From an uncultured Planctomycetia bacterium (GTDB lineage: Bacteria; Omnitrophota; Gorgyraeia; Duberdicusellales; 4484-171): a stretch of 64,000 nucleotides of DNA. Of the stretch, positions 7,378-57,477 are shown in pieces (positions within the stretch are counted from its first letter, which is position 1; each line of letters opens with the position of its first letter). Both the position numbers and the translations under genes were made by a program. The notes beneath the pieces are model-generated. The model was not told the DNA's origin and made no database searches. It worked only from the letters and a program-made list of their open reading frames with translations. Where the stretch lies: the NCBI GenBank assembly GCA_964605645.1, contig CAZSDJ010000002.1, positions 394 through 64,393 on the forward strand. The letters are read 5' to 3'.

Positions 7378-8808
7378 ATGGAAAACGAAGCCTTTAACAA
7401 AAATATAGACAAATTTGGCAATCCTTTTCAGGAAACCAGCTTTCCTAAGCCTTTATCTATCAAGGATATAGTTAATCAATACAGGGAAGAAAAACCGGTT
7501 TCATTAGCCGGCAGAGTTGTTTCGAAGCGGGAACACGGAAAATCGGGTTTTGCTCATTTAGCTGATGCGAGCGGAAAAATTCAAATTTATGCCCGTTTGA
7601 ATAATTTGGCTGAAAAATTTGAGTTGTTCAAAAACTTAGATATTGGCGATATTGTTGGGGTTGAAGGTAAACTTTTTATAACTAGAACCGAAGAGATTAC
7701 AGTTATAGCCGATCAGATAAAATTGTTGGCAAAAGCCTACAGGCCTTTGCCGGAGAAATGGCATGGCTTAAAAGATGTTGAAGTAAGGTATCGGCAGCGT
7801 TACCTTGATTTGATAGCTAACGACCAAGCTTGTGATGTTTTTAGAAAAAGAACAGAAATAGTGGCTTTGGTTCGAAAGTTTTTTGAAAACCTTTCATTTA
7901 TGGAAGTTGAAACTCCGATGCTGCATCATATCCCCGGCGGAGCAGCGGGACGGCCTTTTGAAACCTTTCACAACGCTACATCAAATAAAGTTTATTTGCG
8001 AATTGCTCCTGAACTTTACCTAAAAAGGCTTTTGGTGGGAGGGTTTGATAAAGTTTTTGAGATAAACAGAAGTTTTCGCAACGAGGGATTATCGAGGCGG
8101 CACAATCCGGAGTTTACGATGCTGGAAGCTTATGCAGCTTATTTTGATTATCAGTTTATGATGAAAGTTTGTGAAGATTTATTTACAAAGTTGGCAGAAA
8201 AATTTTGCGGTAGTTTAATCTTTGAATACCAAGGTAAAAAAATAGATTTTACAGCTCCTTGGCAAAGAATTTCTTTAACAAGCCTTTTTAAAAAAGAATT
8301 TGATATTAATCCCGAAGATGAATATAAAGAAGTAGTTTCAAAAATTAGCAAGAAAATAAAATTAAAAGAAGGATTGTCACGAACTCAGATACTTAAATTA
8401 TGCGAAGAGTTGATAGAAAAGAATTATCCTCAAGATAAACCGGCTTTTATTATTGATTTTTTTACTTGGACTTCGCCTTTAGCAAAGCAAAGGCCGGAAG
8501 ATCCGAATTTAGTGGAAAGATTTGAATTGTTTATCGCCGGCATTGAAGTTGCAAATGCTTATTCAGAGCTTAATGATCCGGTTGAGCAAAAACAACGGTT
8601 TTTGGCCCAGCAAAAAGATAAAGAACTTGATGCTAAAATAGATCAAGATTTTATAAAAAGCCTCCAATACGGGATGCCGCCGGCAACCGGCTTAGGAGTC
8701 GGGATAGATCGATTAGTAATGATTCTGCTCAATCAGCCTTCTATTCGGGATGTAATTCTTTTTCCTCTCTTGAAGTTAAAACAAGAATCTGAAGAAAAAA
8801 AATGTTAA
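7378..8808 (+). CDS. lysS: lysine--tRNA ligase (class II)
   Basis: N-terminal OB-fold region, class II motif 2 FRNEGLSRRHNPEFTMLEAY, motif 3 GxGIDRLVM. Confidence 0.92.
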   Translation: MENEAFNKNIDKFGNPFQETSFPKPLSIKDIVNQYREEKPVSLAGRVVSKREHGKSGFAHLADASGKIQIYARLNNLAEKFELFKNLDIGDIVGVEGKLFITRTEEITVIADQIKLLAKAYRPLPEKWHGLKDVEVRYRQRYLDLIANDQACDVFRKRTEIVALVRKFFENLSFMEVETPMLHHIPGGAAGRPFETFHNATSNKVYLRIAPELYLKRLLVGGFDKVFEINRSFRNEGLSRRHNPEFTMLEAYAAYFDYQFMMKVCEDLFTKLAEKFCGSLIFEYQGKKIDFTAPWQRISLTSLFKKEFDINPEDEYKEVVSKISKKIKLKEGLSRTQILKLCEELIEKNYPQDKPAFIIDFFTWTSPLAKQRPEDPNLVERFELFIAGIEVANAYSELNDPVEQKQRFLAQQKDKELDAKIDQDFIKSLQYGMPPATGLGVGIDRLVMILLNQPSIRDVILFPLLKLKQESEEKKC

Positions 8809-10623: not shown

Positions 10624-10630
10624 GTAGGAA

Positions 10631-10790
10631 AGATACAAGATACAAGAAACAAGATGCAAATAAATTCCAAATCCCAATATCCAATAATCAAACATAGACC
10701 AGAGGGGTAGTTTGAAAATTGGTTATTGTATCTTGGTTATTGTTTGTATCTTGTAACTTGTATCTTGGTTATTTCGATTGTGCCTTGATT
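10631..10790. repeat. inverted arrays of heptamer repeats (CAAGATA)n ... (TATCTTG)n in lolD-ilvE intergenic region
   Basis: agatacaagatacaagaaacaagatgc at 10631-10657. Complementary ttgtatcttggttattgtttgtatcttgtaacttgtatcttgg at 10726-10768. Can pair into a long imperfect hairpin. Confidence 0.6.
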
Positions 10791-10831: not shown

Positions 10832-11707
10832 ATGAAAGTATATCTTAATGGGAAGTTGGTAGATAAAAAGGATGCTAAAATTTCTGTATTTGATCATGGT
10901 TATTTGTATGGAGATGGTGTTTTTGAGGGGATAAGATCTTATAATCAGTTAGTTTTTAAGTTAGACGAGCATATAGGCCGTCTTTATGAATCAGCGCATT
11001 CGATAATGCTGCAGTTTCCTTTTACCAAGAAACAAATGGAAAAAGCAATAATTACAACTATTAAGGCAAATAAATTGAAAGATGCCTACATCAGGGTTAT
11101 TTTGTCACGAGGCGAGGGTGATCTTGGCCTTGATCCCAGAAAGTGTAAGGGTAATCATACTTTAGTTATTATAGCTGATAGAATCTCACTTTTTCCGAAT
11201 GAACTTTATAAACAAGGGATGGAAATAGTAACCGTTCCTACAGTGAGAAATTTACTGGAGGCGGTAAACCCGCAAATAAAATCTTTAAATTATTTGAATA
11301 ATGTTTTAGCAAAGATAGAAGCAATAAATTCCGGGCATCAGGAAGGGCTGATGTTAGACCATCTTGGTTATGTGGCGGAATGCACCGGAGAAAATATTTT
11401 TGTGATAAAAAGAGGGGAACTTTACACTCCACCTCAATGCATGGGTACTTTACGCGGGATTACCAGAGACACCGTGTTAGGCCTTGCCAAAAAATTAAAA
11501 ATTCCTGCCCATGAACATGTGTTAAGCAGGCATGAATTTTACATTAGTGACGAATCTTTTTTAACCGGAACTGCTGCAGAAATTGTGCCGGTAGTGAAAG
11601 TCGATGGCAGAAAAATCGGGGATGGGAAACCGGGTAAAGTTACGAAAAAAATAATGAAAGAGTTTCATAAATTAACTAAGAAGGATGGAGTCAAATATAG
11701 TTTATAA
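10832..11707 (+). CDS. ilvE: branched-chain-amino-acid aminotransferase (class IV PLP enzyme)
   Basis: 291 aa. N-terminus VFDHGYLYGDGVFEGIR is typical of IlvE/DAAT fold type IV. RBS GGAGGAG 6 nt upstream. Confidence 0.8.
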   Translation: MKVYLNGKLVDKKDAKISVFDHGYLYGDGVFEGIRSYNQLVFKLDEHIGRLYESAHSIMLQFPFTKKQMEKAIITTIKANKLKDAYIRVILSRGEGDLGLDPRKCKGNHTLVIIADRISLFPNELYKQGMEIVTVPTVRNLLEAVNPQIKSLNYLNNVLAKIEAINSGHQEGLMLDHLGYVAECTGENIFVIKRGELYTPPQCMGTLRGITRDTVLGLAKKLKIPAHEHVLSRHEFYISDESFLTGTAAEIVPVVKVDGRKIGDGKPGKVTKKIMKEFHKLTKKDGVKYSL

Positions 11708-11760
11708 TTAAAAAAATTAGATAATGTTAAAAATTTAATGAAAAATGAAATAATATTGTC

Positions 11761-11788
11761 ATTGCGAGGAGCACAGCGACGAAGCAAT
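11761..11788. repeat. ATTGCGAGGAGC-N-CGACGAAGCAAT element (copy 1)
   Basis: 28-nt element with 5-bp terminal inverted repeat ATTGC/GCAAT. A near-identical copy is at 53899-53927. Confidence 0.6.
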
Positions 11789-11811
11789 CTTTATGACTGG
11801 CGAGGAATAAA

Positions 11812-11990
11812 GTATTCGCTAAATAATTTCATTAAGTATAAAGGCATCTCGCCGAGGAAGTTGGCTCGATGTCATTAAAAATAAAGGTATTCGTTGAAGA
11901 ATAATATTAGGTATAAGGCATCTCGCCGAGGAAGTCGGCTCGATGTCATTAAAAATAAAGGTATTCGCTAAATATATTCATTTTTAATGA
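11812..11990. repeat. about 75-bp tandem direct repeat (2.3 copies) in clpC upstream region
   Basis: Unit gtattcgctaaataatttcattaagtataaaggcatctcgccgaggaagttggctcgatgtcattaaaaataaag. Copies at 11812-11886, 11887-11961, partial 11962-11990. Confidence 0.7.
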
Positions 11991-11997
11991 GGAGGGG
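11958..11997 (+). promoter_or_regulatory. conserved leader block with palindrome TCATTTTTAATGA abutting RBS GGAGG of clpC
   Basis: aaggtattcgctaaatatattcatttttaatgaggaggg is about 95% identical to 19022-19060 upstream of yacL. Perfect 5-3-5 palindrome at 11978-11990. Confidence 0.6.
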
Positions 11998-12000
11998 AAG

Positions 12001-14442
12001 ATGTTTAATCGATTTACGGAACGGGCCAGAAAGGTATTAGTGTTAGCAAAAGAAGAATCAAGGAGATTTAATCATGATTATATCGGCACAGAACATATTC
12101 TTCTCGGTTTAATCCGAGAAGGAGAAGGCGTTGCTTGTGCTGTTTTACAAAATATTGGTATGGATTTAGGGCGCCTGCGGGCCGAAATAGAAAAGCTGAT
12201 GTCGCCGGGCAGCACAGCATCAGTTTTAGGAGATATCCCTTTTACGCCGCGGGCAAAAAAAGCATTAGAACTTGCTACCGAAGAGGCGCGGGGATTAGGG
12301 CATAATTACATCGGCACAGAACATATTTTGTTGGGGTTATTGCGGGAAGAAGAGGGGATTGCTTCTCAGGTTCTTTTTTCGTTAGGGGTAGATATCAAAA
12401 AAGCAAAAAATGAAATAGCTGCACTTTTAGGGGGAGTGTCAGAATCGAGCCGCGCTCAATCAAAAAGAACTGCATCGAGGACCCCGGCTCTAGATTCTTT
12501 TGGCAAGGACCTTACTAAATTACAAAAAGAAGGCGAATTGGATCCGGTTATCGGCAGGAAAGCGGAAATTGAAAGAGTAATCCAGATTTTGTCGCGGCGA
12601 ACCAAGAATAATCCGGTGCTGTTGGGAGAAGCCGGAGTGGGCAAAACTGCGATTGTAGAGGGGTTGGCACAAAGTGTTGTGAGAGGCGATGTGCCGGAGA
12701 TTTTACGCAATAAGAGGATAATAGTACTTGATTTAGCATTGATGATTGCCGGGACTAAATACAGAGGCCAGTTTGAAGAGCGAATTAAAGCGGTGATGGA
12801 AGAAATTAAACGTTCTAAAGATGTAATAATTTTTGTTGATGAACTTCATACTTTAGTTGGCGCAGGAGCTGCGGAAGGCGCAATTGATGCATCAAATATT
12901 TTAAAACCGGCATTATCAAGAGGAGAAATCCAATGTATCGGAGCAACAACCTTAGATGAGTATCGCAAGCACATTGAAAAAGATGCAGCTCTGGAGAGAA
13001 GGTTTCAGATGATTTTTGTGGAACCAAATACCGTATCAGAAACAATTCAAATTTTAGAAGGCTTAAGAGACAAGTATGAAGCTCATCATCGCGTGAAATT
13101 TACTGATGAATCTCTTGCAGCTGCGGCTAAATTTTCAGATCGTTATGTTTCAGGCCGGTTCTTACCGGATAAAGCTATTGATTTAATTGATGAAGCAGGA
13201 GCAAGGTCTCGGCTTGCAATATTAACTGCTCCGGATGGAGTAAAAAAAATAGAAGATAAAATCTCGGAAATAGTTAGAGAAAAAGAAGCTTTTATCAGGC
13301 AGCAAGATTTTGAACAGGCAGCAAAATTGAGGGATGAAGAAAAAAAACTGCGTTTTGAACTCGAAGATTTAAGGCGTGAATGGGGGAAAAAGAGAGATAA
13401 AATTTCACCGGAGGTAAAGGAAGAGGATATTGCTAAATTGGTTTCACAAATAACAGGAGTACCTACTTATCGGTTAGAGCAAAAAGAATCAGAAAAATTA
13501 ATGAAGATGGAAGATTATTTATCGAAAAAAGTTATTGGCCAAGCAGAACCAATTCATGCGATTTCGCGGGCGGTACGCAGGGCCAGAGCCGGGGTTAAGG
13601 AACCGCGCCGGCCGATTGGTTCTTTTATGTTTTTAGGCCCTACTGGGGTAGGGAAAACTTTATTGGCAAGAGCCTTAACGGAATTTATGTTTGGTAATGA
13701 AGAATCATTAATTCAGTTGGATATGAGTGAATATATGGAAAAATTTAATGTATCAAGGCTGGTAGGGGCTCCGCCGGGTTATGTTGGCTATGAAGAAGGC
13801 GGGCAATTAACCGAAAGGGTAAGGCGGAGGCCGTATTCTGTAATTTTGTTGGATGAGATAGAAAAGGCACATCCTGATGTATACAATCTGTTACTCCAGA
13901 TTTTAGAAGAAGGCCGTCTCACTGACAGTTATGGGCGATCGGTAGATTTTAGAAATGTAATCTTGATTATGACTTCTAACGTAGGAGCAGATATTATTCG
14001 TCAAAAAGGGTCGTTAGGGTTTAAATCCAAGCAGGAAGGTGTTGGTTATCAGGAAATGAAAACAGCCTTATTAGATGAGGTTAAAAAGAAATTTAAGCCG
14101 GAATTTCTAAACAGGTTAGATGAAATTACGGTTTTTAAATCTTTAGATAAAAAATCATTAGAAAAAATAGTTGAAATAGAAATAGGGTATGTAAACCGGC
14201 GGCTTCAAGATCAAGGTTTTGTGGTAAAACTTAGCCCGGGAGCTAAGGATTTTTTTATTGAAAAAGGCTTTGATCCAAGTTATGGGGCCCGGCCCTTAAA
14301 AAGAGTTATCCAGAGATTTTTAGAAGACCCTTTAGCCGAGGATATTATTAAAGGCAGATTTTCCGAAAGAATAAAGAAGGCAAAAGAAAAGCCAATTACA
14401 ATTAAAGCTTTAAAAAAAGGACAAATATTAAAATTTGAATGA
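12001..14442 (+). CDS. clpC: ATP-dependent Clp protease ATP-binding subunit ClpC
   Basis: Two N-terminal Clp R repeats, two AAA+ modules (GEAGVGKT and GPTGVGKT), UVR-like linker [26 protein letters not shown]. 813 aa. Confidence 0.92.
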
Positions 14443-15308
14443 AGAAAAATGCAGTAATTTTTTTGTTTTCGTTGATTTTGTTTTTTTTGGTTGAGAGTAA
14501 AGTATATCCGGGGTACGTTGAAATTGATGTAAACCGGAAAAATATTAAAATAAAGGATATTTCTTTCGGTGAAAATGGTATTTCCGGAAATTTTAATTAT
14601 CAAATTGATAAAGAAGATGGAAGAATAATCTTTTTGATAAAGAGAAAAAATTTAAAGTTAGGGGGTAAAGAACTAAAAAATGTTCAAGTAAATCTAGAGA
14701 AAAAAGGAAATATTTTATTCTTCAATGAAATTAAATCATCGCGATTTTCGGGGACAGGAACTGTTGATTTAAAAGAAGAAAAAATTTTGTTTAACTTTAG
14801 CGGTACCTGGCAGGAAAACTTGGAGTATTTTAAAGGTGATATCAATTTACAGGCAAAAATTTGGGGTGATTTTGATAGTTTTTTAATAAGCGGGAATTTT
14901 ATAGTAACTGATGGAGTCTATGAAGGAATTTCTTTTAAGAAACTTCGCTGTAGTTTTGTCGGAACTCCGCCTGTATTTAATGTTACAGACGCTAAAGTAA
15001 TTCTTCATGAAGGGAGTATTTTTGAGTTAAAAGGAAATTTAGATATTAGGGATTCGGAAAATTTTTTCCCGGGTGCAGAGTTTCTCTCAGAAAAATTATT
15101 TGTTGATGGGTGGCAAATTTTTGGCGAAGAAGAAGAAGTGGGGCTAAAAAAGCAAATAGATGATAAGTTTAATGTTGAAATAGATACTGAGCGTGAAGCT
15201 GAAAGCGGTACGGAGCTAAGATACAGTCTGGAAAACGATAATTTTTTAAAATTAAGAATGCAGGAAGAAGAAACTATTTTAGGCCTTGAGAAGAAAAAAG
15301 AATTTTAA
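14439..15308 (+). CDS. hypothetical secreted protein, co-operonic with mlaEFD
   Basis: Signal peptide [20 protein letters not shown]. Beta-rich, low-complexity acidic C-terminus. Start overlaps the clpC stop (ATGA); mlaE begins 6 nt after its stop. Confidence 0.5.
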
Positions 15309-15313
15309 GAGAA

Positions 15314-16072
15314 ATGTTTTTATTCAAGCAAATCGAAGATTTTTTTTATTATATTGGCGGTATTGTTTGTTTTATAAAAGAAATATTTTATTGGTTGTTT
15401 ACAAAAAAAAGAGATTTAAAAATTGTAGGACGTGAAATAATTTTTGCCGGCATTGACAGTTTCTTTTTAGTGTCTTTGATTGCTTTTTTTATCGGGATGA
15501 TTATTGCCTTCCAAACTGCTTATCAATTACAGCAGTTTAAATCAGAAATTCACTTAGCTTCTTTGGTAGCTTTGTCCTTGGTGAGAGAGCTTGGCCCGGT
15601 GATTACAGCTTTAATTGTTGCAGCCAGAAGCGGTGCTTCAATAACAGCAGGCATTGGCTCAATGAAGATTAGTGAGCAAGTAGATGCATTGGAAGTTTTT
15701 GGTGTAGAGCCGATTGATTATTTGGTAGTACCAAAATTTATTGCACTGGTAATTTGTTTGCCGGTTTTGGTTATTTATGCTGATTTATTAGGAATATTTG
15801 GCGGTTATTTAGTTGGTTCATTGAAATTTTCGATGCCTTTTAATTTATATATGAGAATGACTTTAGAGTCTTTGAGCTTAATTGATGTTGTAAGCGGCCT
15901 GGTCAAGAGTGTATTTTTTGGCAGTATTATTGCTATTATTTGTTGTTTTGAAGGTTTTAAGCCTTTTTCTTCGATAGATGTATCAAAAGTCGTAACGCGC
16001 TCTATCGTTCGTTCTTTTATCTTAATTATTATTTTTGATTGCATACTAACGGCATTTTTTTATTTTATATGA
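15314..16072 (+). CDS. mlaE: phospholipid ABC transporter permease MlaE
   Basis: 252 aa, multi-TM, MlaE/YrbE-like. Followed by ATPase and MCE protein. Confidence 0.85.
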   Translation: MFLFKQIEDFFYYIGGIVCFIKEIFYWLFTKKRDLKIVGREIIFAGIDSFFLVSLIAFFIGMIIAFQTAYQLQQFKSEIHLASLVALSLVRELGPVITALIVAARSGASITAGIGSMKISEQVDALEVFGVEPIDYLVVPKFIALVICLPVLVIYADLLGIFGGYLVGSLKFSMPFNLYMRMTLESLSLIDVVSGLVKSVFFGSIIAIICCFEGFKPFSSIDVSKVVTRSIVRSFILIIIFDCILTAFFYFI

Positions 16073-16833
16073 AAAGTGAGATGATTAAATTATCGGATGT
16101 AAAAAGATCCTTTGGAGAAAAAAATGTTCTCAAAGGCATAAGTTTAGGGGTGAATAAAGGAGAAACATTTTTGTTGATTGGAAGAAGCGGAGCGGGAAAA
16201 ACCGTTTTACTTAAATCTATTTTAGGTTTGTTGCGGCCGGATTCAGGAACAATTATTGTTGACGGGCAGGAGATTACTCAATTAGTTAAACTAAAATTAG
16301 AAAAAATTAGGCTTAAGTTTGGATTAGTGTTTCAAAATAGCGCGCTTTTTGATTTTTTAACTGTTTGGGAAAATGTAAGTTTTTTCTTTAAACAACACAC
16401 CAAAATGTCCAAGCAAGAGATGCGAAAAAAAGTTACTAAAACTCTTGCTTTGGTGGGGCTAGAGGGGATAGAGGACATGTATCCTTATGAGTTAAGCGGG
16501 GGGATGCGGAAAAGAGTAGCTATTGCCCGGGCAATTATTTATAATCCGAAAATTGTGATTTATGATGAGCCGACAACGGGGATTGATCCGATTGCAGTAG
16601 ATAAAATTGTTTCGTTGATAAAAGATTTACACAGCCGGCTTGCTGTTACTTCGATAGTTGTAACTCATGATTTAGAAACGGGTTTAAAATTGGCAGATAG
16701 AGTAGCTTTTTTGTTAGGTGGTAAGATCATTTTTGAAGGCAAAAAAGAAGAGGTGGAAAATACAAACGATAAACGATTAATTCAATTTATTGAAGGTGCC
16801 TCCGGAGGGCCGATAAGGGAGATGGAAGTATAA
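16069..16833 (+). CDS. mlaF: phospholipid ABC transporter ATP-binding protein MlaF
   Basis: Walker A GRSGAGKT, signature LSGGMRKRVAIARA, Walker B IVIYDEPTTGIDP. Start chosen at the ATG overlapping the mlaE stop. Confidence 0.85.
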   Translation: MKSEMIKLSDVKRSFGEKNVLKGISLGVNKGETFLLIGRSGAGKTVLLKSILGLLRPDSGTIIVDGQEITQLVKLKLEKIRLKFGLVFQNSALFDFLTVWENVSFFFKQHTKMSKQEMRKKVTKTLALVGLEGIEDMYPYELSGGMRKRVAIARAIIYNPKIVIYDEPTTGIDPIAVDKIVSLIKDLHSRLAVTSIVVTHDLETGLKLADRVAFLLGGKIIFEGKKEEVENTNDKRLIQFIEGASGGPIREMEV

Positions 16834-16837
16834 AGGT

Positions 16838-16887
16838 AAGTCCAAAGTTTTTTGACATAGGACGTAGGACATAGGACGATGGACTAT
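16838..16887. repeat. heptamer repeat array (GGACNTA)x5 preceded by AAGTCCAAAGT, mlaF-mlaD spacer
   Basis: aagtccaaagttttttgacataggacgtaggacataggacgatggactat. Member of the dispersed AAGTCC/GGAC heptamer family. Confidence 0.7.
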
Positions 16888-16905
16888 AAAAAGGGAGGAA
16901 TATAG

Positions 16906-17610
16906 GTGAGTAAGAATTTGTGGGAAATTAGAAAAAGGTTTTCTTATATAAAAGTGGGTGTATTTTTTTTAGGAGGGGTATCTTTATTGTTTATAGCCTT
17001 GGTAGCAATTAAAGATATTAATTTATTCAAACAAGGTTATAAAATACAAGTTATTTTTGATTTTGCAGAAGGCATGAAAAGAGCTTCACCGGTGCGGTTT
17101 TGCGGGGTTGATATAGGTGAGGTGCAAGAAGTAGTAGTTGTAAATAGTACAAAAGGGCCTCATGTTCAGGCTAGAGTTAACCTGGAAAAGGGAGTAAAAA
17201 TACCAAAAGGTTCTTATTTTTTTATAAATAGTTTAAGTTTATTTGGTGAAAAATATTTGGAAATTACTCCGCCGGAAGAGTTTTCCGGGTATATAAAAGA
17301 GGGAGAAACGATTAAAGGAATATCACCGGTACCTCTTTTTAAGTTATTTGCTGATTTTAGTAAAACTATGGATGAACTAAGAAGCTTTGTGAAGGAAGGC
17401 GAAATTAAAGAATCTTTAGAAAATACGATGAAAAATTTAGAAGAGATTAGCTTGGAAGCTAAAAAGTTAATATTAGATGTAAGGGATAAAAAAGGTACAA
17501 TCGGAAAATTGTTTTATGATGATTCGCTCTATCAAGAAACAGAAGAGTTTATCTCAGATATAAAGAAAAACCCCTGGAAGCTATTATACAAACCGAAAGA
17601 GGGGAGATAG
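16906..17610 (+). CDS. mlaD: MCE-family phospholipid-binding protein MlaD (GTG start)
   Basis: N-terminal TM then MCE domain. RBS AAGGGAGGAA at 16891-16900 with GTG at 16906. Confidence 0.8.
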   Translation: MSKNLWEIRKRFSYIKVGVFFLGGVSLLFIALVAIKDINLFKQGYKIQVIFDFAEGMKRASPVRFCGVDIGEVQEVVVVNSTKGPHVQARVNLEKGVKIPKGSYFFINSLSLFGEKYLEITPPEEFSGYIKEGETIKGISPVPLFKLFADFSKTMDELRSFVKEGEIKESLENTMKNLEEISLEAKKLILDVRDKKGTIGKLFYDDSLYQETEEFISDIKKNPWKLLYKPKEGR

Positions 17611-17653
17611 TAGGAGTTTAAAAAGTTAAATGTCACACGTCTCAAACTAACAT

Positions 17654-19015
17654 ATGACTTGTGACTTTAATATTATGTATAGTTGTAAAGAATGCGGATA
17701 TCAATCAATAAAGTGGATGGGTAAGTGCCCTAATTGCGGGGGTTGGGAAACTTTTTTGCAAAAAATTAGTGAATCTTCTTCCCGAAAATTAAAATCTCGG
17801 CCCAAATCAGTTCCTCGTCTGCTTAAAGATATTGGTAAAATAAAAAACGAAAGAACAAAAACTGATCTTTCTGAATTTGACCGGATTTTGGGCGGAGGGT
17901 TAATAGCCGGCCAGGTAATATTGATTGGAGGTGAACCGGGGATTGGAAAATCTACGCTTTTGCTGGAGGTAGCTTCTAAATTATCAAAAGAAGGAAAAAC
18001 TATGTATGTAAGTGCTGAAGAATCGCCGCAGCAAATTGGAGTTAGAGCTGAGCGCCTGGCAAATGTTTATCCCGAAAAACTTTATATTAGTGATGAAGAA
18101 AGAGTGGAAAATATTTATAAAACTATTGAATCAGAAGGATTTCAATTTGTAGTTGTAGATTCTATTCAAGTTATGACTAGTGCTTTTGCCGACGGTGCCA
18201 AGGGGAGTGTTCTTTCGGTCAGAAGTTGTGCTGATTATCTAACTCAGGCAGCAAAAGCGTTAGGAGTTGTAATATTTATAGTGGGGCACGTTACAAAGTC
18301 GGGTACAATCGCCGGGCCTAAGCTGCTTGAACATATTGTAGATAGTGTACTTTATTTTGAGGGTGAAACTCTATCTAATTATCGAATTTTACGTTCAATT
18401 AAAAACCGATTTGGGCCAACGGGCGATATTGCTGTTTTTGATATGACATCCAGCGGTTTATCGGAAGTTAAAAAGATTAATGATATTTTTTTGCCGCATA
18501 AAAAAGAATCGTCTCCCGGGAGTTGTGTTATTTGCCCTTTACAAGGTTCGCGTCCAATTTTAGTTGAACTGCAATCACTTGTAAGCCGGGCAACTTTTGG
18601 AACAGTAAGAAGAAGAAGCTTAGGTTTTGATTTTAATCGATTTTCTTTATTGGTTGCGATAATTGAAAAAAGGTTGAAGGCTAAAATATCCGGTGAAGAT
18701 ATTTTTTTAAATGTTGCCGGCGGCCTGCGTATCAATGATCCGGCTGCAGATTTAGGGGCGGTAGTTGCGATTATCTCCAGTTTTTTAGAAAAAAAAGTTC
18801 CTGCCGGAGGGGTATTTATTGGTGAAGTGGGGTTAGGAGGAGAGTTAAGGAAAGTTCGGGATATAAATTCAAGGTTGCGAGAAATAGAGAGGGCAAATTT
18901 CACTTATTGTTATTTGCCTGAGGCTAACAAAAAAGAAGTGGATAAAAAATTTGTGAATAAGGTTTTTGGTTTTTCCAATTTAGGAGAAATTTATCAGGAA
19001 CTTTTTAAAAGTTGA
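17654..19015 (+). CDS. radA: DNA repair protein RadA (Sms)
   Basis: N-terminal C4 zinc finger CKECGY...CPNCGGW, RecA-like Walker A GEPGIGKST, KNRFG motif, C-terminal Lon-like domain. Alternative start at 17675 (MYSCKECG). Confidence 0.9.
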   Translation: MTCDFNIMYSCKECGYQSIKWMGKCPNCGGWETFLQKISESSSRKLKSRPKSVPRLLKDIGKIKNERTKTDLSEFDRILGGGLIAGQVILIGGEPGIGKSTLLLEVASKLSKEGKTMYVSAEESPQQIGVRAERLANVYPEKLYISDEERVENIYKTIESEGFQFVVVDSIQVMTSAFADGAKGSVLSVRSCADYLTQAAKALGVVIFIVGHVTKSGTIAGPKLLEHIVDSVLYFEGETLSNYRILRSIKNRFGPTGDIAVFDMTSSGLSEVKKINDIFLPHKKESSPGSCVICPLQGSRPILVELQSLVSRATFGTVRRRSLGFDFNRFSLLVAIIEKRLKAKISGEDIFLNVAGGLRINDPAADLGAVVAIISSFLEKKVPAGGVFIGEVGLGGELRKVRDINSRLREIERANFTYCYLPEANKKEVDKKFVNKVFGFSNLGEIYQELFKS

Positions 19016-19021
19016 TATTGT

Positions 19022-19060
19022 AAGGTATTCTCTAAATATATTCATTTTTAATGAGGAGGG
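19022..19060 (+). promoter_or_regulatory. conserved leader block with palindrome TCATTTTTAATGA abutting RBS GGAGG of yacL
   Basis: Near-identical to 11958-11997 (clpC leader). Palindrome at 19042-19054. Candidate -35 TTGATA at 19017-19022. Confidence 0.6.
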
Positions 19061-19063
19061 TGT

Positions 19064-20053
19064 ATGTGGGCTTTAGTTTTTTTACGAATATTTTTTATTT
19101 TTATTTTTGTGGTATTGGGTTTTTCTTTAAGTAAAGGTAATCCTTTATTATTTGCTGCAATCGGCCTCGGTACAGGGATTTTTGTAGTAGTTTTAGAGAT
19201 GTTTGGGCGCAAAGTATCATTAAAAGGCTTAAGCAGTGCTGTGTTTGGAATTTTACTGGGCTTATTGCTTTCTGCTGTCTTTGGCTTAGCTTTAGCTCAG
19301 TTTCCTTTGCCTGCTGATGTGACACCTGATTTTTTAGATAATATTAAATTGTTTGTTACTTTAGTTTTTGTTTACCTGGGTTTAACTTTGGGGATCAAAG
19401 GCCAGGATGAATTTAATTTGGTTATCCCTTATGTAAAATTTAAAAGAGGAGAATCGAGAGAAGAAGAAATTATTGTTGATACAAGTAGTATTATCGACGG
19501 GAGAATCCTGGATATTGTAAAAACCGGTTTTGTTGAAGCAAAATTTATTATTCCTCGCTTTGTGTTGAATGAAATGCATACTTTAGCTGATTCAACTGAT
19601 CACATGAAAAGGCAGAAAGGAAAAAGGGGGATAGAAATATTACATGATTTAAAAAAACAGCCGAATATCGACATTGAAGTTACGGAAGAAGAAATTGCCG
19701 TAGTGAAAACAGTTGATGAAAAGATTATTAAATTAGCTCAAAAACACAGCGCTAAAGTGTTAACTACAGATTATAATTTAAATCGAATTGCTCAATTTCA
19801 GGGAGTAAAAGTATTAAATATCAATGATCTTGCGAATGCCTTAAAGCCGTCTTTGATAACGGGTAATACTTTTAATTTGAAATTAGTGAAAGAAGGTAAA
19901 GAACGGAATCAGGCAATAGGATATCTAGAAGATGGAACGATGGTAGTTGTCGAGGGCGGCAAGAAATTAGTGGGAAAAACTGTGAATGTAGAAGTTGCTT
20001 CTGTATTACAGAATCCAAGTGGTAGAATTATTTTTACAAAATTAAGTAGTTAA
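19064..20053 (+). CDS. yacL: PIN/TRAM domain membrane protein (YacL-like)
   Basis: N-terminal TM helices, PIN-like core, C-terminal TRAM-like beta domain. Position after radA and before ispD/ispF as in the Firmicutes clpC-radA-disA-yacL-ispDF locus. Confidence 0.7.
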   Translation: MWALVFLRIFFIFIFVVLGFSLSKGNPLLFAAIGLGTGIFVVVLEMFGRKVSLKGLSSAVFGILLGLLLSAVFGLALAQFPLPADVTPDFLDNIKLFVTLVFVYLGLTLGIKGQDEFNLVIPYVKFKRGESREEEIIVDTSSIIDGRILDIVKTGFVEAKFIIPRFVLNEMHTLADSTDHMKRQKGKRGIEILHDLKKQPNIDIEVTEEEIAVVKTVDEKIIKLAQKHSAKVLTTDYNLNRIAQFQGVKVLNINDLANALKPSLITGNTFNLKLVKEGKERNQAIGYLEDGTMVVVEGGKKLVGKTVNVEVASVLQNPSGRIIFTKLSS

Positions 20054-27117: not shown

Positions 27118-27140
27118 CCTTGACATTTTTAATGTCAAGG
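27118..27140. promoter_or_regulatory. perfect 23-bp palindrome CCTTGACATT-TTT-AATGTCAAGG in divergent oxidoreductase/msbA promoter region
   Basis: Contains TTGACA on both strands. Minus-strand TTGACA-16-TATATT arrangement could drive the oxidoreductase-lpxB transcript. Core CATTTTTAATG also occurs in the clpC and yacL leaders. Confidence 0.55.
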
Positions 27141-27304
27141 ATTATCCGCCTCAAGACTGCTGTTTCATCTATTTTTAATGATAATGAAGGCGGATAAAAT
27201 TATATTATCAGAGAACTTGAGAAAAGTCAATTAATGTGGTACAATCCCTCACCGTTTAATAAGGATAAAGGATAAAGGTTAAAAAAGGGAAGAGTGAAGA
27301 AAAA

Positions 27305-29177: not shown

Positions 29178-29219
29178 TCCTTGACAATCAAACTGCCTAG
29201 ATAGTATATTTGTCAAGGA
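29178..29219 (+). promoter_or_regulatory. rpsB promoter P1 (TTGACA-18-TATATT) embedded in inverted repeat TCCTTGACAA...TTGTCAAGGA
   Basis: TTGACA at 29181-29186 and TATATT at 29205-29210. 10-bp arms at 29178-29187 and 29210-29219. A second TTGACA at 29238-29243. Confidence 0.5.
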
Positions 29220-29314: not shown

Positions 29315-30310
29315 ATGGGATTGACAGATACTATTAAAAAAATGTTGGAAGGAGGGGTTCATTTTGGGCATCTGAAGCGCAATTGGAACCCTAAAATGAA
29401 GAAATTTATTTTTGGTAGAAAGAAGAATATTTATATTATTGACTTAGAAAAAACTACTAAAAAGTTAGATCAAGCAAAAGAATTTGTTAAAGAAATAGCC
29501 AAATCAGGCGGGAATATTCTTTTTGTGGGGACCAAAAGGCAGATTAGGCCGGTGATTAAAGAGTTGGCAAATTCGTGTGACATGCCTTATGTGGACCAAA
29601 AATGGGTAGGAGGCTTGCTTACCAATTTTTCTACTATCAAAAAACGCTTGCAAAGATATCAAGAACTTCTCAAAATGCGGGAAAATGGAGAATTCGACGA
29701 CATCCCCAGTAAAGAAGTGGTGCGCCTGAATCGCCAAATTAGCCGGATGGATAAAAATTATAGTGGGCTGACCTCACTTACAACTTTACCGGATTGCGTG
29801 TTTGTGGTAGATCCAAAAAGAGAAAAATCTTCTGTAAGAGAAACAGCTAAATTATCAATTCCTTTGGTGGCTCTAATTGATACCGATGCTAACCCTGAAG
29901 AAGTAGATTACCCTATCCCCGGTAATGATGATGCAATTAGATCAGTAAAATTTATTGTCAGTTCTTTAGTTGAGGCGATAGAGGCCGGAAGAGAAAGTTA
30001 CCACAAAATAGAAAAAGAAAAAGAATCTAAAGAAAATAAAGAATTAAATGGCCAAGAAGAAAAATCGGAAGATGGAACCGAACAAGATAAAGAGCAGCAA
30101 GGAGAGAAAAAAGAGAAGGGAGAGAAATCCGAAATAGGAAATGCGAAATCCGAAAAGGAGAAAGGAGAAGAACAAAAAGAGAAATCCGAAATACGAAATA
30201 CGAAATCCGAAAAGGAGAAAGGAGAAGAACAAAAAGAGAAATCCGAAATAGGAAATGCGAAATCCGAAAAGGAGAAAGGAGAAACAAACAAAGAGGAGGA
30301 AGAGGAGTAG
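29315..30310 (+). CDS. rpsB: 30S ribosomal protein S2 with about 95-aa acidic/lysine-rich tandem-repeat C-terminal extension
   Basis: N-terminal S2 core (GVHFGH, ILFVGTKRQ, FVVDP...AL...IP). The tail contains three 19-aa repeats EKSEIGNAKSEKEKGEEQK. Confidence 0.9.
   Translation: MGLTDTIKKMLEGGVHFGHLKRNWNPKMKKFIFGRKKNIYIIDLEKTTKKLDQAKEFVKEIAKSGGNILFVGTKRQIRPVIKELANSCDMPYVDQKWVGGLLTNFSTIKKRLQRYQELLKMRENGEFDDIPSKEVVRLNRQISRMDKNYSGLTSLTTLPDCVFVVDPKREKSSVRETAKLSIPLVALIDTDANPEEVDYPIPGNDDAIRSVKFIVSSLVEAIEAGRESYHKIEKEKESKENKELNGQEEKSEDGTEQDKEQQGEKKEKGEKSEIGNAKSEKEKGEEQKEKSEIRNTKSEKEKGEEQKEKSEIGNAKSEKEKGETNKEEEEE
30122..30292 (+). repeat. 3 x 57-bp tandem repeat within rpsB 3' coding region
   Basis: Unit gagaaatccgaaataggaaatgcgaaatccgaaaaggagaaaggagaagaacaaaaa repeated in-frame. 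Explains the spurious minus-strand ORFs at 29998-30380. Confidence 0.85.
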
Positions 30311-39423: not shown

Positions 39424-39426
39424 ATT

Positions 39427-39458
39427 AGTCCATAGTCCAAAGTCCTATGTCCAAAGTC
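39427..39458. repeat. heptamer repeat array (AGTCCNN)x4.5 after DAHP synthase stop
   Basis: agtccatagtccaaagtcctatgtccaaagtc. Overlaps the annotated tyrA 5' end, whose true start may be 39474. Confidence 0.7.
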
Positions 39459-40310
39459 AATATTAGAAATGATATGGAGTTGAAGCAAGTTAAAAAAGTT
39501 GGGGTTATCGGAGTTGGTTTAATGGGGGGCTCTTTAGCCTTGGCTCTTAAGAAAAGTTTCAATAATTTTGAGATTATAGGCCATGCCAGAAGCGATAAAA
39601 CATTTAGGCGCCTTAGAAAAGCAAAGGTCTTAGATAGGATTGAAAGGTCTGATAAAAAAATTGCTCAAGAAGCGGATATTCTAATTTTAGCTACTCCGGT
39701 GGGGATAATTATTGATCTTTTAAAGAAATTAGCTCCTCACCTTAAAAAAGGAGCAATTGTTTTTGATTTAGGAAGCAGTAAAAAAGAAATAGAAAAAATA
39801 GCTAAAAGCAATCTTTCTAAAGGAGTTTATTTTGTGGGTTGCCATCCTTTTTGCGGTTCAGAAAAAAAAGGAGTTGCCAGAGCCAGAGGGGATCTTTACC
39901 AAGATTCAATATGCTTTATAACTTCAAAAAATAAAGCAACACCGGTAGTTTCCAAAATTTGGAAAAAAATTGGTGCTATTGTTATTCAAGTAAACTCAAA
40001 AGCTCATGATAAAATTACTTGTTTTCTTTCGCACCTACCTCATCTTATTTGTTTTTCTTTGCTGAATACAGTACCGAATAATTATTTAAATTTCAGTTCG
40101 TCAGGTTTTCGTGATTTTACCAGAATCGGTTCTTCTTCCGATAGCCTTTGGACCGATATTTTTTTAACCAACAAAAAAGAAATATTAAAAAGTATAAATA
40201 AAACAAAAAAAGAAATAGGTAAATTTACTAAAGCAATTAAAACAGAAGACCGGAAAAAAATAAAAATATTAATAAAGAAAGCAAACAGAAAAAGAACTAA
40301 AGTTTTATGA
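39447..40310 (+). CDS. tyrA: prephenate dehydrogenase
   Basis: Rossmann VGVIGVGLMGGSLALAL. Alternative start 39474 (MELKQVKK) would place the heptamer repeat in the intergenic region. Confidence 0.8.
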   Translation: MSKVNIRNDMELKQVKKVGVIGVGLMGGSLALALKKSFNNFEIIGHARSDKTFRRLRKAKVLDRIERSDKKIAQEADILILATPVGIIIDLLKKLAPHLKKGAIVFDLGSSKKEIEKIAKSNLSKGVYFVGCHPFCGSEKKGVARARGDLYQDSICFITSKNKATPVVSKIWKKIGAIVIQVNSKAHDKITCFLSHLPHLICFSLLNTVPNNYLNFSSSGFRDFTRIGSSSDSLWTDIFLTNKKEILKSINKTKKEIGKFTKAIKTEDRKKIKILIKKANRKRTKVL

Positions 40311-43386: not shown

Positions 43387-43700
43387 TTAAAAGTCCAAAG
43401 TCCAAAGTCCAAAGTCCAAAGTCAATAAAAGAGATTAGTTTACTTTTTATAATAGGTTTGTTTTTAATTGGTTGCATTAGAACTCAGGAATATATTTATC
43501 AAGAGGATGCTTTTAAGAAAGTTGAAGAAGTTGAAGGACAGCCGGAAGAAAAGTTAGAAATTGGCCAAGAAAAATGGATGGATATTTATTTCGAAGAAAA
43601 TAATTTTATTATGCAGTGTCCGGTTTGTATGAGAAGATATCCGGGCAATGTAGAAAAATGTCCTTATGATGGGGCAAATTTAGATAAAATTAAGGAGTAA
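43383..43700 (+). CDS. small lipoprotein with C-terminal zinc-ribbon (CPVC...CPYDG); N-terminus encoded by heptamer repeat
   Basis: Start overlaps the lepB stop (ATGA). N-terminus KSPKSKVQSPKS translates the (AAGTCC)n array. Lipobox LIGC. C-terminal CxxC-x13-CxxDG. Confidence 0.5.
   Translation: MIKSPKSKVQSPKSIKEISLLFIIGLFLIGCIRTQEYIYQEDAFKKVEEVEGQPEEKLEIGQEKWMDIYFEENNFIMQCPVCMRRYPGNVEKCPYDGANLDKIKE
43391..43423. repeat. heptamer repeat array (AAGTCCA)x4.5
   Basis: aagtccaaagtccaaagtccaaagtccaaagtc. The most regular copy of the family. Confidence 0.8.
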
Positions 43701-52471: not shown

Positions 52472-53128
52472 ATGACAGTAATAGTTGACTATGGGATGGG
52501 TAATTTAGAGAGTGTAAAAAACGCGGTTCTTTTTTTAGACAAAAAAGTAATTATTACCAGCTCACCTAAAGACTTACTCGCGGCTGAAAAGATTATTTTT
52601 CCCGGTGTGGGCCATTTTGGAAAAGCAATAACTGAATTAAAAAAAAGAGGGCTTGTTGAAATTTTAAAGAAAAGAATTAACCAAGGTATACCTTTTTTAG
52701 GAATTTGTTTAGGGATGCAATTGCTATTTGAAAAAAGCAGCGAAGCAGAAGGGGTAAACGGCCTTGGCCTGATAAAAGGAGAAGTTTTAAAGTTTAATTC
52801 TAAAAATTTAATTGTGCCTCATATGGGGTGGAATCAGATAAATAAAGTCCAAAGTCCTAAGTCCAAAGTCTCCGCCTCCGCCAAGACTATGGCGGACAAG
52901 CTAAGTCAAGAAAAGGGGTTGTTTGAGGGGATTGAAGACGGCAGTTATTTTTATTTTGCCCACTCTTATTTTTGTAAGCCCCATGAAGATGTTACCTTAG
53001 CAACCGTTGATTATGGTGAAAATTTTAGTTGTGCTATACATAAAAAAAATATTTGGGCTATTCAATTTCATCCGGAAAAAAGCCAAAAGAAAGGCTTAAA
53101 AGTTTTAGATAATTTCTTAATAATTTAG
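52472..53128 (+). CDS. hisH: imidazole glycerol phosphate synthase glutaminase subunit HisH, with in-frame repeat-derived insertion
   Basis: Class I GATase triad (GICLGMQ Cys, HPE His). Extra segment KVQSPKSKVSASAKTMADKLSQEK between the GWN and LF motifs. Confidence 0.9.
   Translation: MTVIVDYGMGNLESVKNAVLFLDKKVIITSSPKDLLAAEKIIFPGVGHFGKAITELKKRGLVEILKKRINQGIPFLGICLGMQLLFEKSSEAEGVNGLGLIKGEVLKFNSKNLIVPHMGWNQINKVQSPKSKVSASAKTMADKLSQEKGLFEGIEDGSYFYFAHSYFCKPHEDVTLATVDYGENFSCAIHKKNIWAIQFHPEKSQKKGLKVLDNFLII
52845..52870. repeat. heptamer array (AAGTCCN)x3.5 inside hisH coding sequence
   Basis: aagtccaaagtcctaagtccaaagtc read in-frame as KVQSPKSKV. Followed by the tccgcctccgcc mini-repeat. Confidence 0.75.
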
Positions 53129-57375: not shown

Positions 57376-57477
57376 AGTCCAAAGTCCATAGTCCCAAGTC
57401 AAAAGAATAAACTTTATTGCTTATTTTAAAATTTAAAAATAATGACATAGGGCTTCGGACACAGGACATAGGACTAT
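57376..57477. repeat. inverted pair of heptamer arrays (AGTCCNN)x3.5 ... (GGACNNN)x4.5 flanking a 44-nt A/T-rich spacer, ribH-nusB intergenic
   Basis: Left arm agtccaaagtccatagtcccaagtc at 57376-57400. Right arm gacatagggcttcggacacaggacataggactat at 57445-57477. Confidence 0.75.

Follow-up and report, generated by a model that had tools for sequence, protein, structure and literature searches.

In Bacillus, clpC stands in the operon ctsR-mcsA-mcsB-clpC-radA-disA-yacL-ispD-ispF under the control of CtsR and McsAB, and the CtsR operator is a tandem heptad direct repeat, (A/G)GTCAAA-NAN-(A/G)GTCAAA, that overlaps the clpC promoter. Here we describe how clpC and yacL are headed in a different lineage, using a 64,000-nucleotide (nt) stretch of contig CAZSDJ010000002.1 (the window, by which we mean this whole stretch) from the genome of an uncultured Candidatus Omnitrophota bacterium. 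The Omnitrophota cluster resembles the Bacillus operon in running from clpC to radA-yacL-ispD-ispF-cysS, with mcsA and mcsB before clpC in outgroups. It differs in having neither ctsR nor a CtsR operator and in the position of mlaEFD and a gene for an unknown protein of 289 amino acids (aa), which separate clpC from radA in the whole phylum. Within this cluster, clpC and yacL of the window carry nearly the same 39-nt leader. The best-supported reading, to which we give about even odds, makes this 39-mer the 3′ portion of an mRNA leader or intercistronic module that is specific to the clade, acts in cis, and would control translation or mRNA fate.

The 39-mer AAGGTATTCGCTAAATATATTCATTTTTAATGAGGAGGG lies at 11958-11996 upstream of clpC (12001-14442, plus strand, identified by Pfam ClpC), and a second copy lies at 19022-19060 upstream of yacL (19064-20053, plus strand, Pfam PIN and TRAM). 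The two agree at 38 of 39 bases, with a single G to T mismatch, and 0 matches at three or fewer mismatches are expected by chance from 100 dinucleotide-preserving shuffles, which confirms the near-identical leader pair reported in a sequence-only reading of the window. That reading gave the leader 40 nt and placed an ATG 5-6 nt after it; the strings are 39 nt long and the ATGs follow them by 4 and 3 nt, so that the start codons of clpC (12001) and yacL (19064) are 5 and 4 nt past GGAGG. When the 60-nt regions upstream of 61 open reading frames (ORFs) of the window were compared in all 1830 pairs, the longest common substring of the clpC/yacL pair was 29 nt, against 14 nt for the runner-up pair and a median of 6 nt. 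Long shared leaders are therefore not general in this AT-rich genome, a possibility that the sequence-only reading had raised against its own observation. The palindrome on which it had fixed, TCATT-TTT-AATGA, is exact in both leaders (TCATTTTTAATGA at 11978-11990 and 19042-19054), and the palindrome pattern has seven matches in the window at one mismatch or fewer, compared with 0.86 expected.

Both window leaders are built from the same three parts on the plus strand. Before clpC these are a conserved block that we call L5 (11958-11979, AAGGTATTCGCTAAATATATTC), an A/U tract called P (11980-11990, ATTTTTAATGA), and the Shine-Dalgarno sequence GGAGG (11991-11995). Before yacL they are L5 at 19022-19043, P at 19044-19054, and GGAGG at 19055-19059, and this copy begins 6 nt downstream of the radA stop codon (19013-19015) in a bare form that has no upstream pairing arm. 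The clpC leader, in contrast, is the last, partial unit of a tandem array with a period of 74 nt and 2.4 copies (11806-11982, plus strand). A full array unit consists of an L5-like block, then a GC-rich hairpin (HP), then an arm, P′, that is complementary to P. The first HP, GGCATC-TC-GCCGA-GGAAG-TTGGC-TC-GATGTC, occupies 11843-11873 and the second, GGCATC-TC-GCCGA-GGAAG-TCGGC-TC-GATGTC, occupies 11917-11947; the P′ arms, both TCATTAAAAAT, occupy 11872-11882 and 11946-11956, all on the plus strand. The second P′ is predicted to pair with P at 11980-11990, in a helix that would begin at the end of HP and enclose L5 as a 23-nt loop. Ahead of the array is a sigma-70-like site (11727-11754, plus strand; TTAAAA-16-AATAAT with an upstream TG), a weak consensus match and a possible candidate promoter for the structured leader. 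Across the family, the core of the module is about 40 nt and comprises L5 (AAGGUAUUCGCUAAAUAWAUUS), P (AUUUUYAAUG), and GGAGG placed 3-10 nt before a start codon. The full form has one to three or more 74-nt units ahead of the core, each with a stable HP and then P′; this form is carried by the clpC copy in the window and by clpC, ilvE, or yacL copies in relatives.

Relatives were surveyed as loci (designated by L-numbers), of which about 258 kb lie within the clade. A YacL search of species-representative genomes yielded 40 loci, nearly all from Omnitrophota metagenome-assembled genomes, and extra loci were gathered with IlvE and with the 289-aa protein, which is poorly conserved. About 780-800 kb of loci, and the window in addition, were searched by pattern, by profile (nhmmer), and by covariance model; the covariance-model E-values are rough, as the calibration was shortened. 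These searches found 18 terminal leader copies in 12 related genomes, a narrow clade, and all 18 are on the sense strand, end in GGAGG, and stop 3-10 nt before a start codon. Nine precede clpC (the window, L001, L002, L003, L004, L042, L043, L056, and L059), one precedes ilvE (L045), four precede mlaD (L037, L045, L046, and L056), and four precede yacL (the window, L004, L037, and L056). The upstream 74-nt units number none in L003, L004, L042, and L043, one in L001 and L059 and at each of the clpC and yacL copies of L056, two in the window and L002, and at least three in L045, where an assembly gap interrupts the array. The copies sit at the few real intergenic gaps of the long co-directional ilvE-clpC-mla-radA-yacL cluster, where a gene has to begin translation by itself. 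Outside this cluster there is no copy in the roughly 258 kb of clade DNA, including the other 57 kb of the window, and the profile and covariance model find none in the distant Omnitrophota loci (L005-L036 and L038-L040). In an exact 22-mer scan, no GTDB representative genome gave a match. A first degenerate leader pattern gave 0 matches in a JGI metagenome collection that evidently does not include the samples holding L043 and L056, and a second pattern gave eight matches in the same collection, none followed by GGAGG, which we read as chance. Literature searches on Omnitrophota intergenic repeats and on the GC-hairpin string returned nothing relevant. The leader motif is previously undescribed, real, under selection, and of narrow distribution, and its class is that of structured cis-regulatory leaders.

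Throughout the phylum the conserved order is ilvE-(mcsAB)-clpC-(289-aa unknown)-mlaE-mlaF-mlaD-radA-yacL-ispD-ispF, which indicates that the mla genes between clpC and radA are an old arrangement and no local rearrangement. The separation of clpC and yacL by mla genes (mlaE/F/D, 15314-17610, by Pfam) and radA (17654-19015, by Pfam) is thus real, as the sequence-only reading had it, but is not peculiar to this genome. In distant Omnitrophota and in outgroups L037, L045, and L046, mcsA and mcsB lie between ilvE and clpC. Comparison of the ilvE-clpC interval (window 10832-12001; L037 1069-2839; L045 4603-6355; L046 3153-4906) shows that the window subclade has lost both genes from this position and has the leader or array directly before clpC. 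In the window, clpC directly follows ilvE and the cluster holds no ctsR gene; in L037, McsA-like and McsB-like ORFs come after ilvE and there is no additional ORF, and precomputed Pfam annotation gives the same for L045 and L046.

Support for an RNA-level module comes from its two helices, both of which carry compensatory changes. In ten copies of HP, 97.3% of cells are paired, compared with 19-42% in slid controls. Three pairs have changed on both sides (10 cells), a covariation value reached by 0 of 500 shuffles. Several HP positions are G·U on the sense strand, in 5 of 10 copies at one position, and such pairs indicate that the selection on HP points to sense RNA and not to DNA or antisense RNA. 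The P′:P helix has 9-11 base pairs (bp), almost all A-U, and ends 0-1 nt before GGAGG. It is 100% paired in the first four array-bearing leaders and 93.6% paired in ten sequences; at its center, five sequences have an A-U pair and four a G-C pair, and compensatory changes have turned U-A into C-G in L002 and A-U into G-C in L046. From an independent alignment, RNAalifold predicts HP and P′:P as adjacent helices with L5 as a loop and four compensated pairs. Folded singly, the array-bearing leaders all yield this P′:P stem, with predicted energies of -10 to -12 kcal/mol and weak z-scores.

Three other ways in which the leader could act at the RNA or peptide level were considered and set aside. 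No U tract follows HP on either strand, and an intrinsic terminator was rejected on that ground. A leader peptide or upstream ORF was rejected on inspection of the sequences, because neither the reading frames nor the ATG within P have been conserved: the frame changes from one leader subtype to another, and P has AATT in the clpC copy of L056 and AACG in L046. CsrA-type GGA sites were likewise rejected, since the hairpin loop is GGAAG only in the window and GTAAT in relatives. Searches of Rfam 15 at gathering thresholds found only three tRNAs in the whole window. In E-value mode the best matches in 11650-12060 had E = 0.74-9.6 and 12-19 bits, far below the gathering thresholds, and belonged to unrelated eukaryotic snoRNA and miRNA families.

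Comparison with relatives changes the standing of the palindrome on which the sequence-only reading had remarked. It is not conserved: orthologous leaders read GCATTTTTAATGG, GTATTTTTAATGA, or TTCATTTTCAATT at this position, and the feature that covaries is ATTTTYAATG pairing with the upstream arm, with the central base of the palindrome covarying with P′. We regard it as very unlikely that a dimeric repressor bound to TCATT-N3-AATGA, or to P′/P as DNA, represses clpC and yacL in place of CtsR. Such an operator would fit the exact palindrome in both window copies, the loss of mcsA/mcsB in the window subclade set against their retention in L037, L045, and L046, and the way in which the P′/P inverted repeat surrounds a possible -10 element. 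However, L002, L003, L042, and the clpC copy of L056 have a degraded palindrome in an otherwise conserved leader, and the base that covaries with P′ is the central one, which a repressor normally does not contact. Most copies also have no P′, the G·U pairs of the adjacent HP indicate selection on sense-strand RNA, and the targets include mlaD and ilvE, which do not form a stress set. Of the original proposal of a lineage-specific operator or translational element, what stands is a cis-element that is lineage-specific, selected, and present at both ribosome-binding sites; the DNA operator is disfavored. An RNA-level element is favored over it because every copy lies on the sense strand, G·U pairs occur in the helices, and sigma-70-like promoters stand upstream in L002, L042, and L043. 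The expectation that the motif marks a heat-shock or protein-quality regulon is not supported either, as the same leader heads mlaD and ilvE in relatives.

Searches for described repressor sites agree in finding none at these leaders. At two or fewer mismatches the whole window contains one match to the CtsR operator, at 26704-26688 on the minus strand and inside a gene, and there is no CtsR-type repeat near 11700-12000 or 19000-19060, so that this fuzzy search bears out the earlier statement that clpC and yacL have no such repeat. The CIRCE element is TTAGCACTC-N9-GAGTGCTAA, and the HAIR element is CTTGAGT-N7-ACTCAAG. No CIRCE-like match occurs in the window at four or fewer mismatches, and the only HAIR-like matches at three mismatches, at 47922 and 48135, are both inside genes.

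Another reading places the function in transcription initiation: each copy would be an internal promoter cassette with a -10 in CTAAATAWAT, a -35 supplied by P′ (TTGAAA/TTAAAA), and a ribosome-binding site, so that clpC, mlaD, and yacL would have their own starts inside a long operon and tandem units would be tandem promoters. We consider this possible although unlikely. The gaps that the copies occupy are indeed the only sizeable intergenic ones of the cluster, and a sigma-70 scan returns one 9/12 match at the clpC copy (TTAAAA-18-TATATT, 11949-11978) that spans P′-L5; in L001 and L045 the P′ arm has TTGAAA 16 nt before AATAAT. The same scan finds no promoter at the yacL leader. The position of the -35 is not conserved among leader copies, there being no conserved -35 upstream of mlaD or of the L042, L043, and L045 copies, and from one leader subtype to another the best -10 register moves, although the blocks on either side are invariant. 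Clear promoters of this genome, moreover, are near-consensus TTGACA/TATAAT (canonical TTGACA-17-TATAAT promoters are present elsewhere in the window), and compensatory changes and G·U pairs in HP and P′:P are not expected of a promoter. Near-consensus TATAAT boxes occur just upstream of the element in three genomes (L002, L042, and L043), which would place the element within the transcript. A sigma-54, ECF, or sigma-B promoter in L5 was discarded on inspection against the consensus sequences, as the spacing does not fit.

The leaders are under purifying selection. At four-fold sites of clpC, the window is 0.33-0.46 identical to every compared clade genome except L041, with 0.26 expected at random, and most between-genome leader pairs are identical at 27-37 of 38 positions. 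Leader identity of about 80-95% between genomes in which clpC four-fold sites are near saturation indicates selection on the leaders. In the coding flanks (150 codons at the end of ilvE and 150 at the start of clpC) synonymous identity is 0.39-0.61 and is not raised near the leader, which means that a recent recombination tract does not explain the conservation; recent horizontal replacement was dropped on the same ground, that flanking four-fold sites are not elevated. Leaders of yacL or mlaD from different genomes are identical at 35-36 of 38 positions and the two window copies at 37 of 38. The likeness of the window pair therefore mostly reflects constraint on a family consensus. Recent gene conversion behind the 38/39 identity was the explanation first favored, as other clpC leaders have AATTGC where yacL and mlaD leaders have ATATTC; it was dropped as unnecessary once the L059 clpC leader proved to be of the window subtype and the cross-genome copies proved this similar.

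These data also bear on a more skeptical reading, in which the element is a neutral or selfish local repeat that spreads by slippage, ectopic recombination, or gene conversion and the identity within the window records recent, functionless copying. Turnover is indeed rapid, with units varying from 0 to 3 or more among close relatives. In the sister genome L041, ClpC is 98% identical and four-fold sites are 0.82 identical, and yet a 264-nt block of the window (11727-11990, plus strand, defined by sequence comparison) is cleanly missing. The block comprises the promoter-like site, the GTCATTGCGAGG...GCAATC hairpin, the array, L5, and P; upstream of clpC only ...TAATGGGAGGGGAAGATG is left in L041, and the indel junction falls in the short repeat TAATG. 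In L043 (14783-15259) an insertion of about 430 nt, containing a 108-aa ORF without a Pfam match and three copies of GTCATTCGCCGGTTTATCCGGCGAATC, splits the yacL leader and leaves the L5 half by radA and the TTTATTTTAATGAGGAGG half by yacL. Heptamer arrays and GC-rich hairpins fill the same gaps, and both window copies have the AATGAGGAGGG junction in common. Against neutrality, all 18 copies keep strictly to one orientation and to their distance from the start codon, conservation is far above the synonymous background with flanks not raised, cross-genome copies (35-36/38) are as alike as the window pair (37/38) so that recent copying is unnecessary, and compensatory changes keep the helices intact. 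Tests modeled on mobile and dispersed repeats point the same way. Over the 780-800 kb searched, no leader copy lies outside the cluster or on the antisense strand, unlike REP/BIME elements, and by the MITE/Correia test the copies have no flanking duplications, a fixed orientation and start-codon distance, and in most cases no P′. No terminal-repeat or target-duplication signatures were found at the leader copies. We judge the neutral reading quite improbable.

We return to the reading of a cis-acting mRNA module, for which a mechanism in three parts can be sketched. The A/U tract with GGAGG would provide strong, independent initiation where translational coupling is broken. P′:P pairing, with HP stacked on it, may modulate access to the initiation region or protect the mRNA end. 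The nearly invariant L5 loop may be recognized by one trans-acting protein or RNA common to the carrier genes, through which they would be adjusted together at the post-transcriptional level. A more ambitious version would make the module a riboregulator in which L5 docks a dedicated trans-acting factor and the number of hairpin/anti-enhancer units sets the gain. The candidate factor would be the PIN-TRAM ribonuclease YacL itself, acting by autoregulation, and it is suggested because a yacL copy of the leader is present in outgroup L037 as well as in the window subclade. This version is distinctly unlikely; if it is true, the riboregulator would couple ClpC proteostasis, Mla outer-membrane lipid transport, and yacL-ispDF post-transcriptionally after McsAB loss.

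Several observations weigh against the mRNA module itself. It is dispensable, as neither leader nor array stands before clpC in L041, and the yacL copy is lost, replaced, or split in several relatives; the radA-yacL gap holds other repeats in L001, L002, L003, and L042. L5 is different at clpC and yacL in L001 and L056 (GGAATAACAC...). The bare leader, including the yacL copy of the window, has no significant structure (z -1.2 to +0.7). The P′:P helix adjoins the Shine-Dalgarno sequence and excludes it, and in a partition-function model the predicted change in accessibility from 5 to 45 °C is modest and inconsistent. Few independent events, all within 12 related genomes, underlie the covariation, and inverted repeats 23 nt apart could co-evolve at the DNA level by template switching. 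The module is conserved where it is present, but it is frequently lost.

The accessibility model applies most directly to an RNA thermometer for clpC, in which the A-U-rich P′:P helix would melt on heat shock and free translation. Here a 9-11-bp helix of almost only A-U pairs adjoins the Shine-Dalgarno sequence of a classical heat-shock gene, and modeled Shine-Dalgarno accessibility between 5 and 45 °C rises from 0.23 to 0.63 for the window clpC and from 0.19 to 0.62 for L001. The helix, however, contains neither the Shine-Dalgarno sequence nor the AUG, the model keeps P mostly paired at temperatures up to 45 °C, and the other leaders have no trend. In addition, this full module is also found ahead of yacL in L056 and ahead of ilvE in L045, and the folding z-scores are weak. 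A thermometer is, in our estimation, highly improbable.

The intergenic gaps of this lineage contain several other repeats. The sequence-only reading had connected the core of the leader with a 23-bp palindrome, CCTTGACATTTTTAATGTCAAGG, which is present as written at 27118-27140. The two are unrelated: neither the leader profile nor the covariance model matches this site, which belongs to a separate hairpin family. Its members are inverted repeats, CCTTGACA...TGTCAAGG, with loops of 7-27 nt and arms that contain the -35 consensus TTGACA. Copies lie in the window at 27119-27139 and 29180-29217, in L002 at 18512-18549, in L042 at 7802-7837, and in L037 at 2723-2763 and 2783-2811. Of the window copies, one separates an oxidoreductase/lpxB operon from an msbA-like gene, which are divergent envelope genes, and the other stands before rpsB; both L037 copies stand between mcsB and clpC. 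From the sequence of their arms these repeats could be candidate operators or promoter-embedded hairpins.

Just upstream of the clpC array, at 11758-11790, a GC-rich hairpin GTCATTGCGAGG...CGAAGCAATC represents a further small repeat family, several copies of which, in both orientations, fill the radA-yacL gap of L042 (7690-7860, 13877-13909). Tandem heptamer repeats (AAAGTCC, GACATAG, TTGTATC, and others) fill many intergenic gaps, in the window at 43390-43423, 52844-52870, 57376-57405, 39426-39462, and 16854-16884, and further at 57444-57474, 10744-10767, 10630-10659, and 27261-27283; in L043 they occupy 12379-12585 and 13271-13449. The heptamers of relatives form inverted arrays that would fold into long hairpins, and similar runs precede clpC in the distant Omnitrophota L019, L022, L026, and L029. 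The arrays are reminiscent of the STRR repeats of cyanobacteria. At L056 4060-4870, between opp and UDP-sugar pyrophosphorylase genes, lies a Y1/IS200-like transposase gene (PF01797, E = 2e-5). The hairpin ATTCCACTGCGGCAGTGGAAT flanks it in three copies, an arrangement like that of REP/RAYT, which the window does not have. A link between HP and this transposase was rejected, as the hairpin that flanks the gene is neither HP nor the leader.

Some features of the genes themselves deserve mention. In the window, 59 of 61 ORFs of at least 90 aa are on the plus strand with gaps that are mostly overlapping or tiny, and a strong GGAGG-type Shine-Dalgarno sequence is found in only about 12 of 61 genes. 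Near-consensus TTGACA-17-TATAAT promoters lie 8-12 nt from the start codons at 7378, 44910, 54807, and 59903, a spacing that suggests very short or absent leaders for many genes. The 289-aa gene (14439-15308) has an ATGA overlap with the stop codon of clpC and is followed, throughout the phylum, by mlaE; its product has a signal-peptide-like N-terminus and no Pfam or NCBIfam match and may be a candidate uncharacterized partner of the Mla system. Ribosomal protein S2, encoded by rpsB (29315-30310), has a Glu/Lys-rich C-terminal extension in which a 57-nt tandem repeat runs for 2.9 copies (30121-30283).

Omnitrophota are uncultured and their gene regulation is almost unknown, and the leader offers a candidate cis-regulatory RNA with covariation support. 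It shows how a lineage may wire ClpC and its envelope and repair neighbors without CtsR, and as an RNA of 40-125 nt the module is a small target that can be synthesized. It also teaches caution, since the eye-catching palindrome turned out not to be conserved and constraint on the family consensus accounts for how nearly identical the two copies are. With a scope of about a dozen related metagenome-assembled genomes and one cluster, and with the module dispensable in the nearest relative, its general impact is modest.

Set beside described systems, the leader shares parts with several. Where the CtsR direct repeat acts as DNA, the Omnitrophota leader has RNA-type conservation, in a window subclade without mcsAB. 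Like the RNA thermometers fourU, ROSE, and cyanobacterial hsp17, it has an A/U-rich helix beside the ribosome-binding site in the leader of a heat-shock gene, but its helix does not sequester the Shine-Dalgarno sequence or AUG, it also heads genes outside the heat-shock set, and modeled melting is not clear. REP/BIME, ERIC, and the Correia elements of Neisseria can influence the expression of neighboring genes, and the leader resembles them as a small intergenic hairpin repeat with a copy number that varies among close relatives; in contrast to them, its copies are in one cluster, in one orientation, and locked to start codons. With the S1-site A/U enhancers of phage T7 gene 10 and Escherichia coli atpE it shares an unstructured A/U tract directly 5′ of a strong, well-spaced Shine-Dalgarno sequence, to which it adds about 38 nt conserved nearly base for base, much more than an enhancer of the composition type requires, and a covarying upstream complementary arm. 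With regard to a possible riboswitch, covarying helices and a conserved loop are present, but the downstream genes (ilvE, clpC, mlaD, and yacL) share no metabolite logic. Compared with tandem riboswitch aptamers, it differs in having no Rfam match, mixed downstream genes, a variable unit number, and no sign of a ligand pocket, and it is like them in its repeated structured units, its conserved loop and covarying stems, and the placement of its last unit at the ribosome-binding site.

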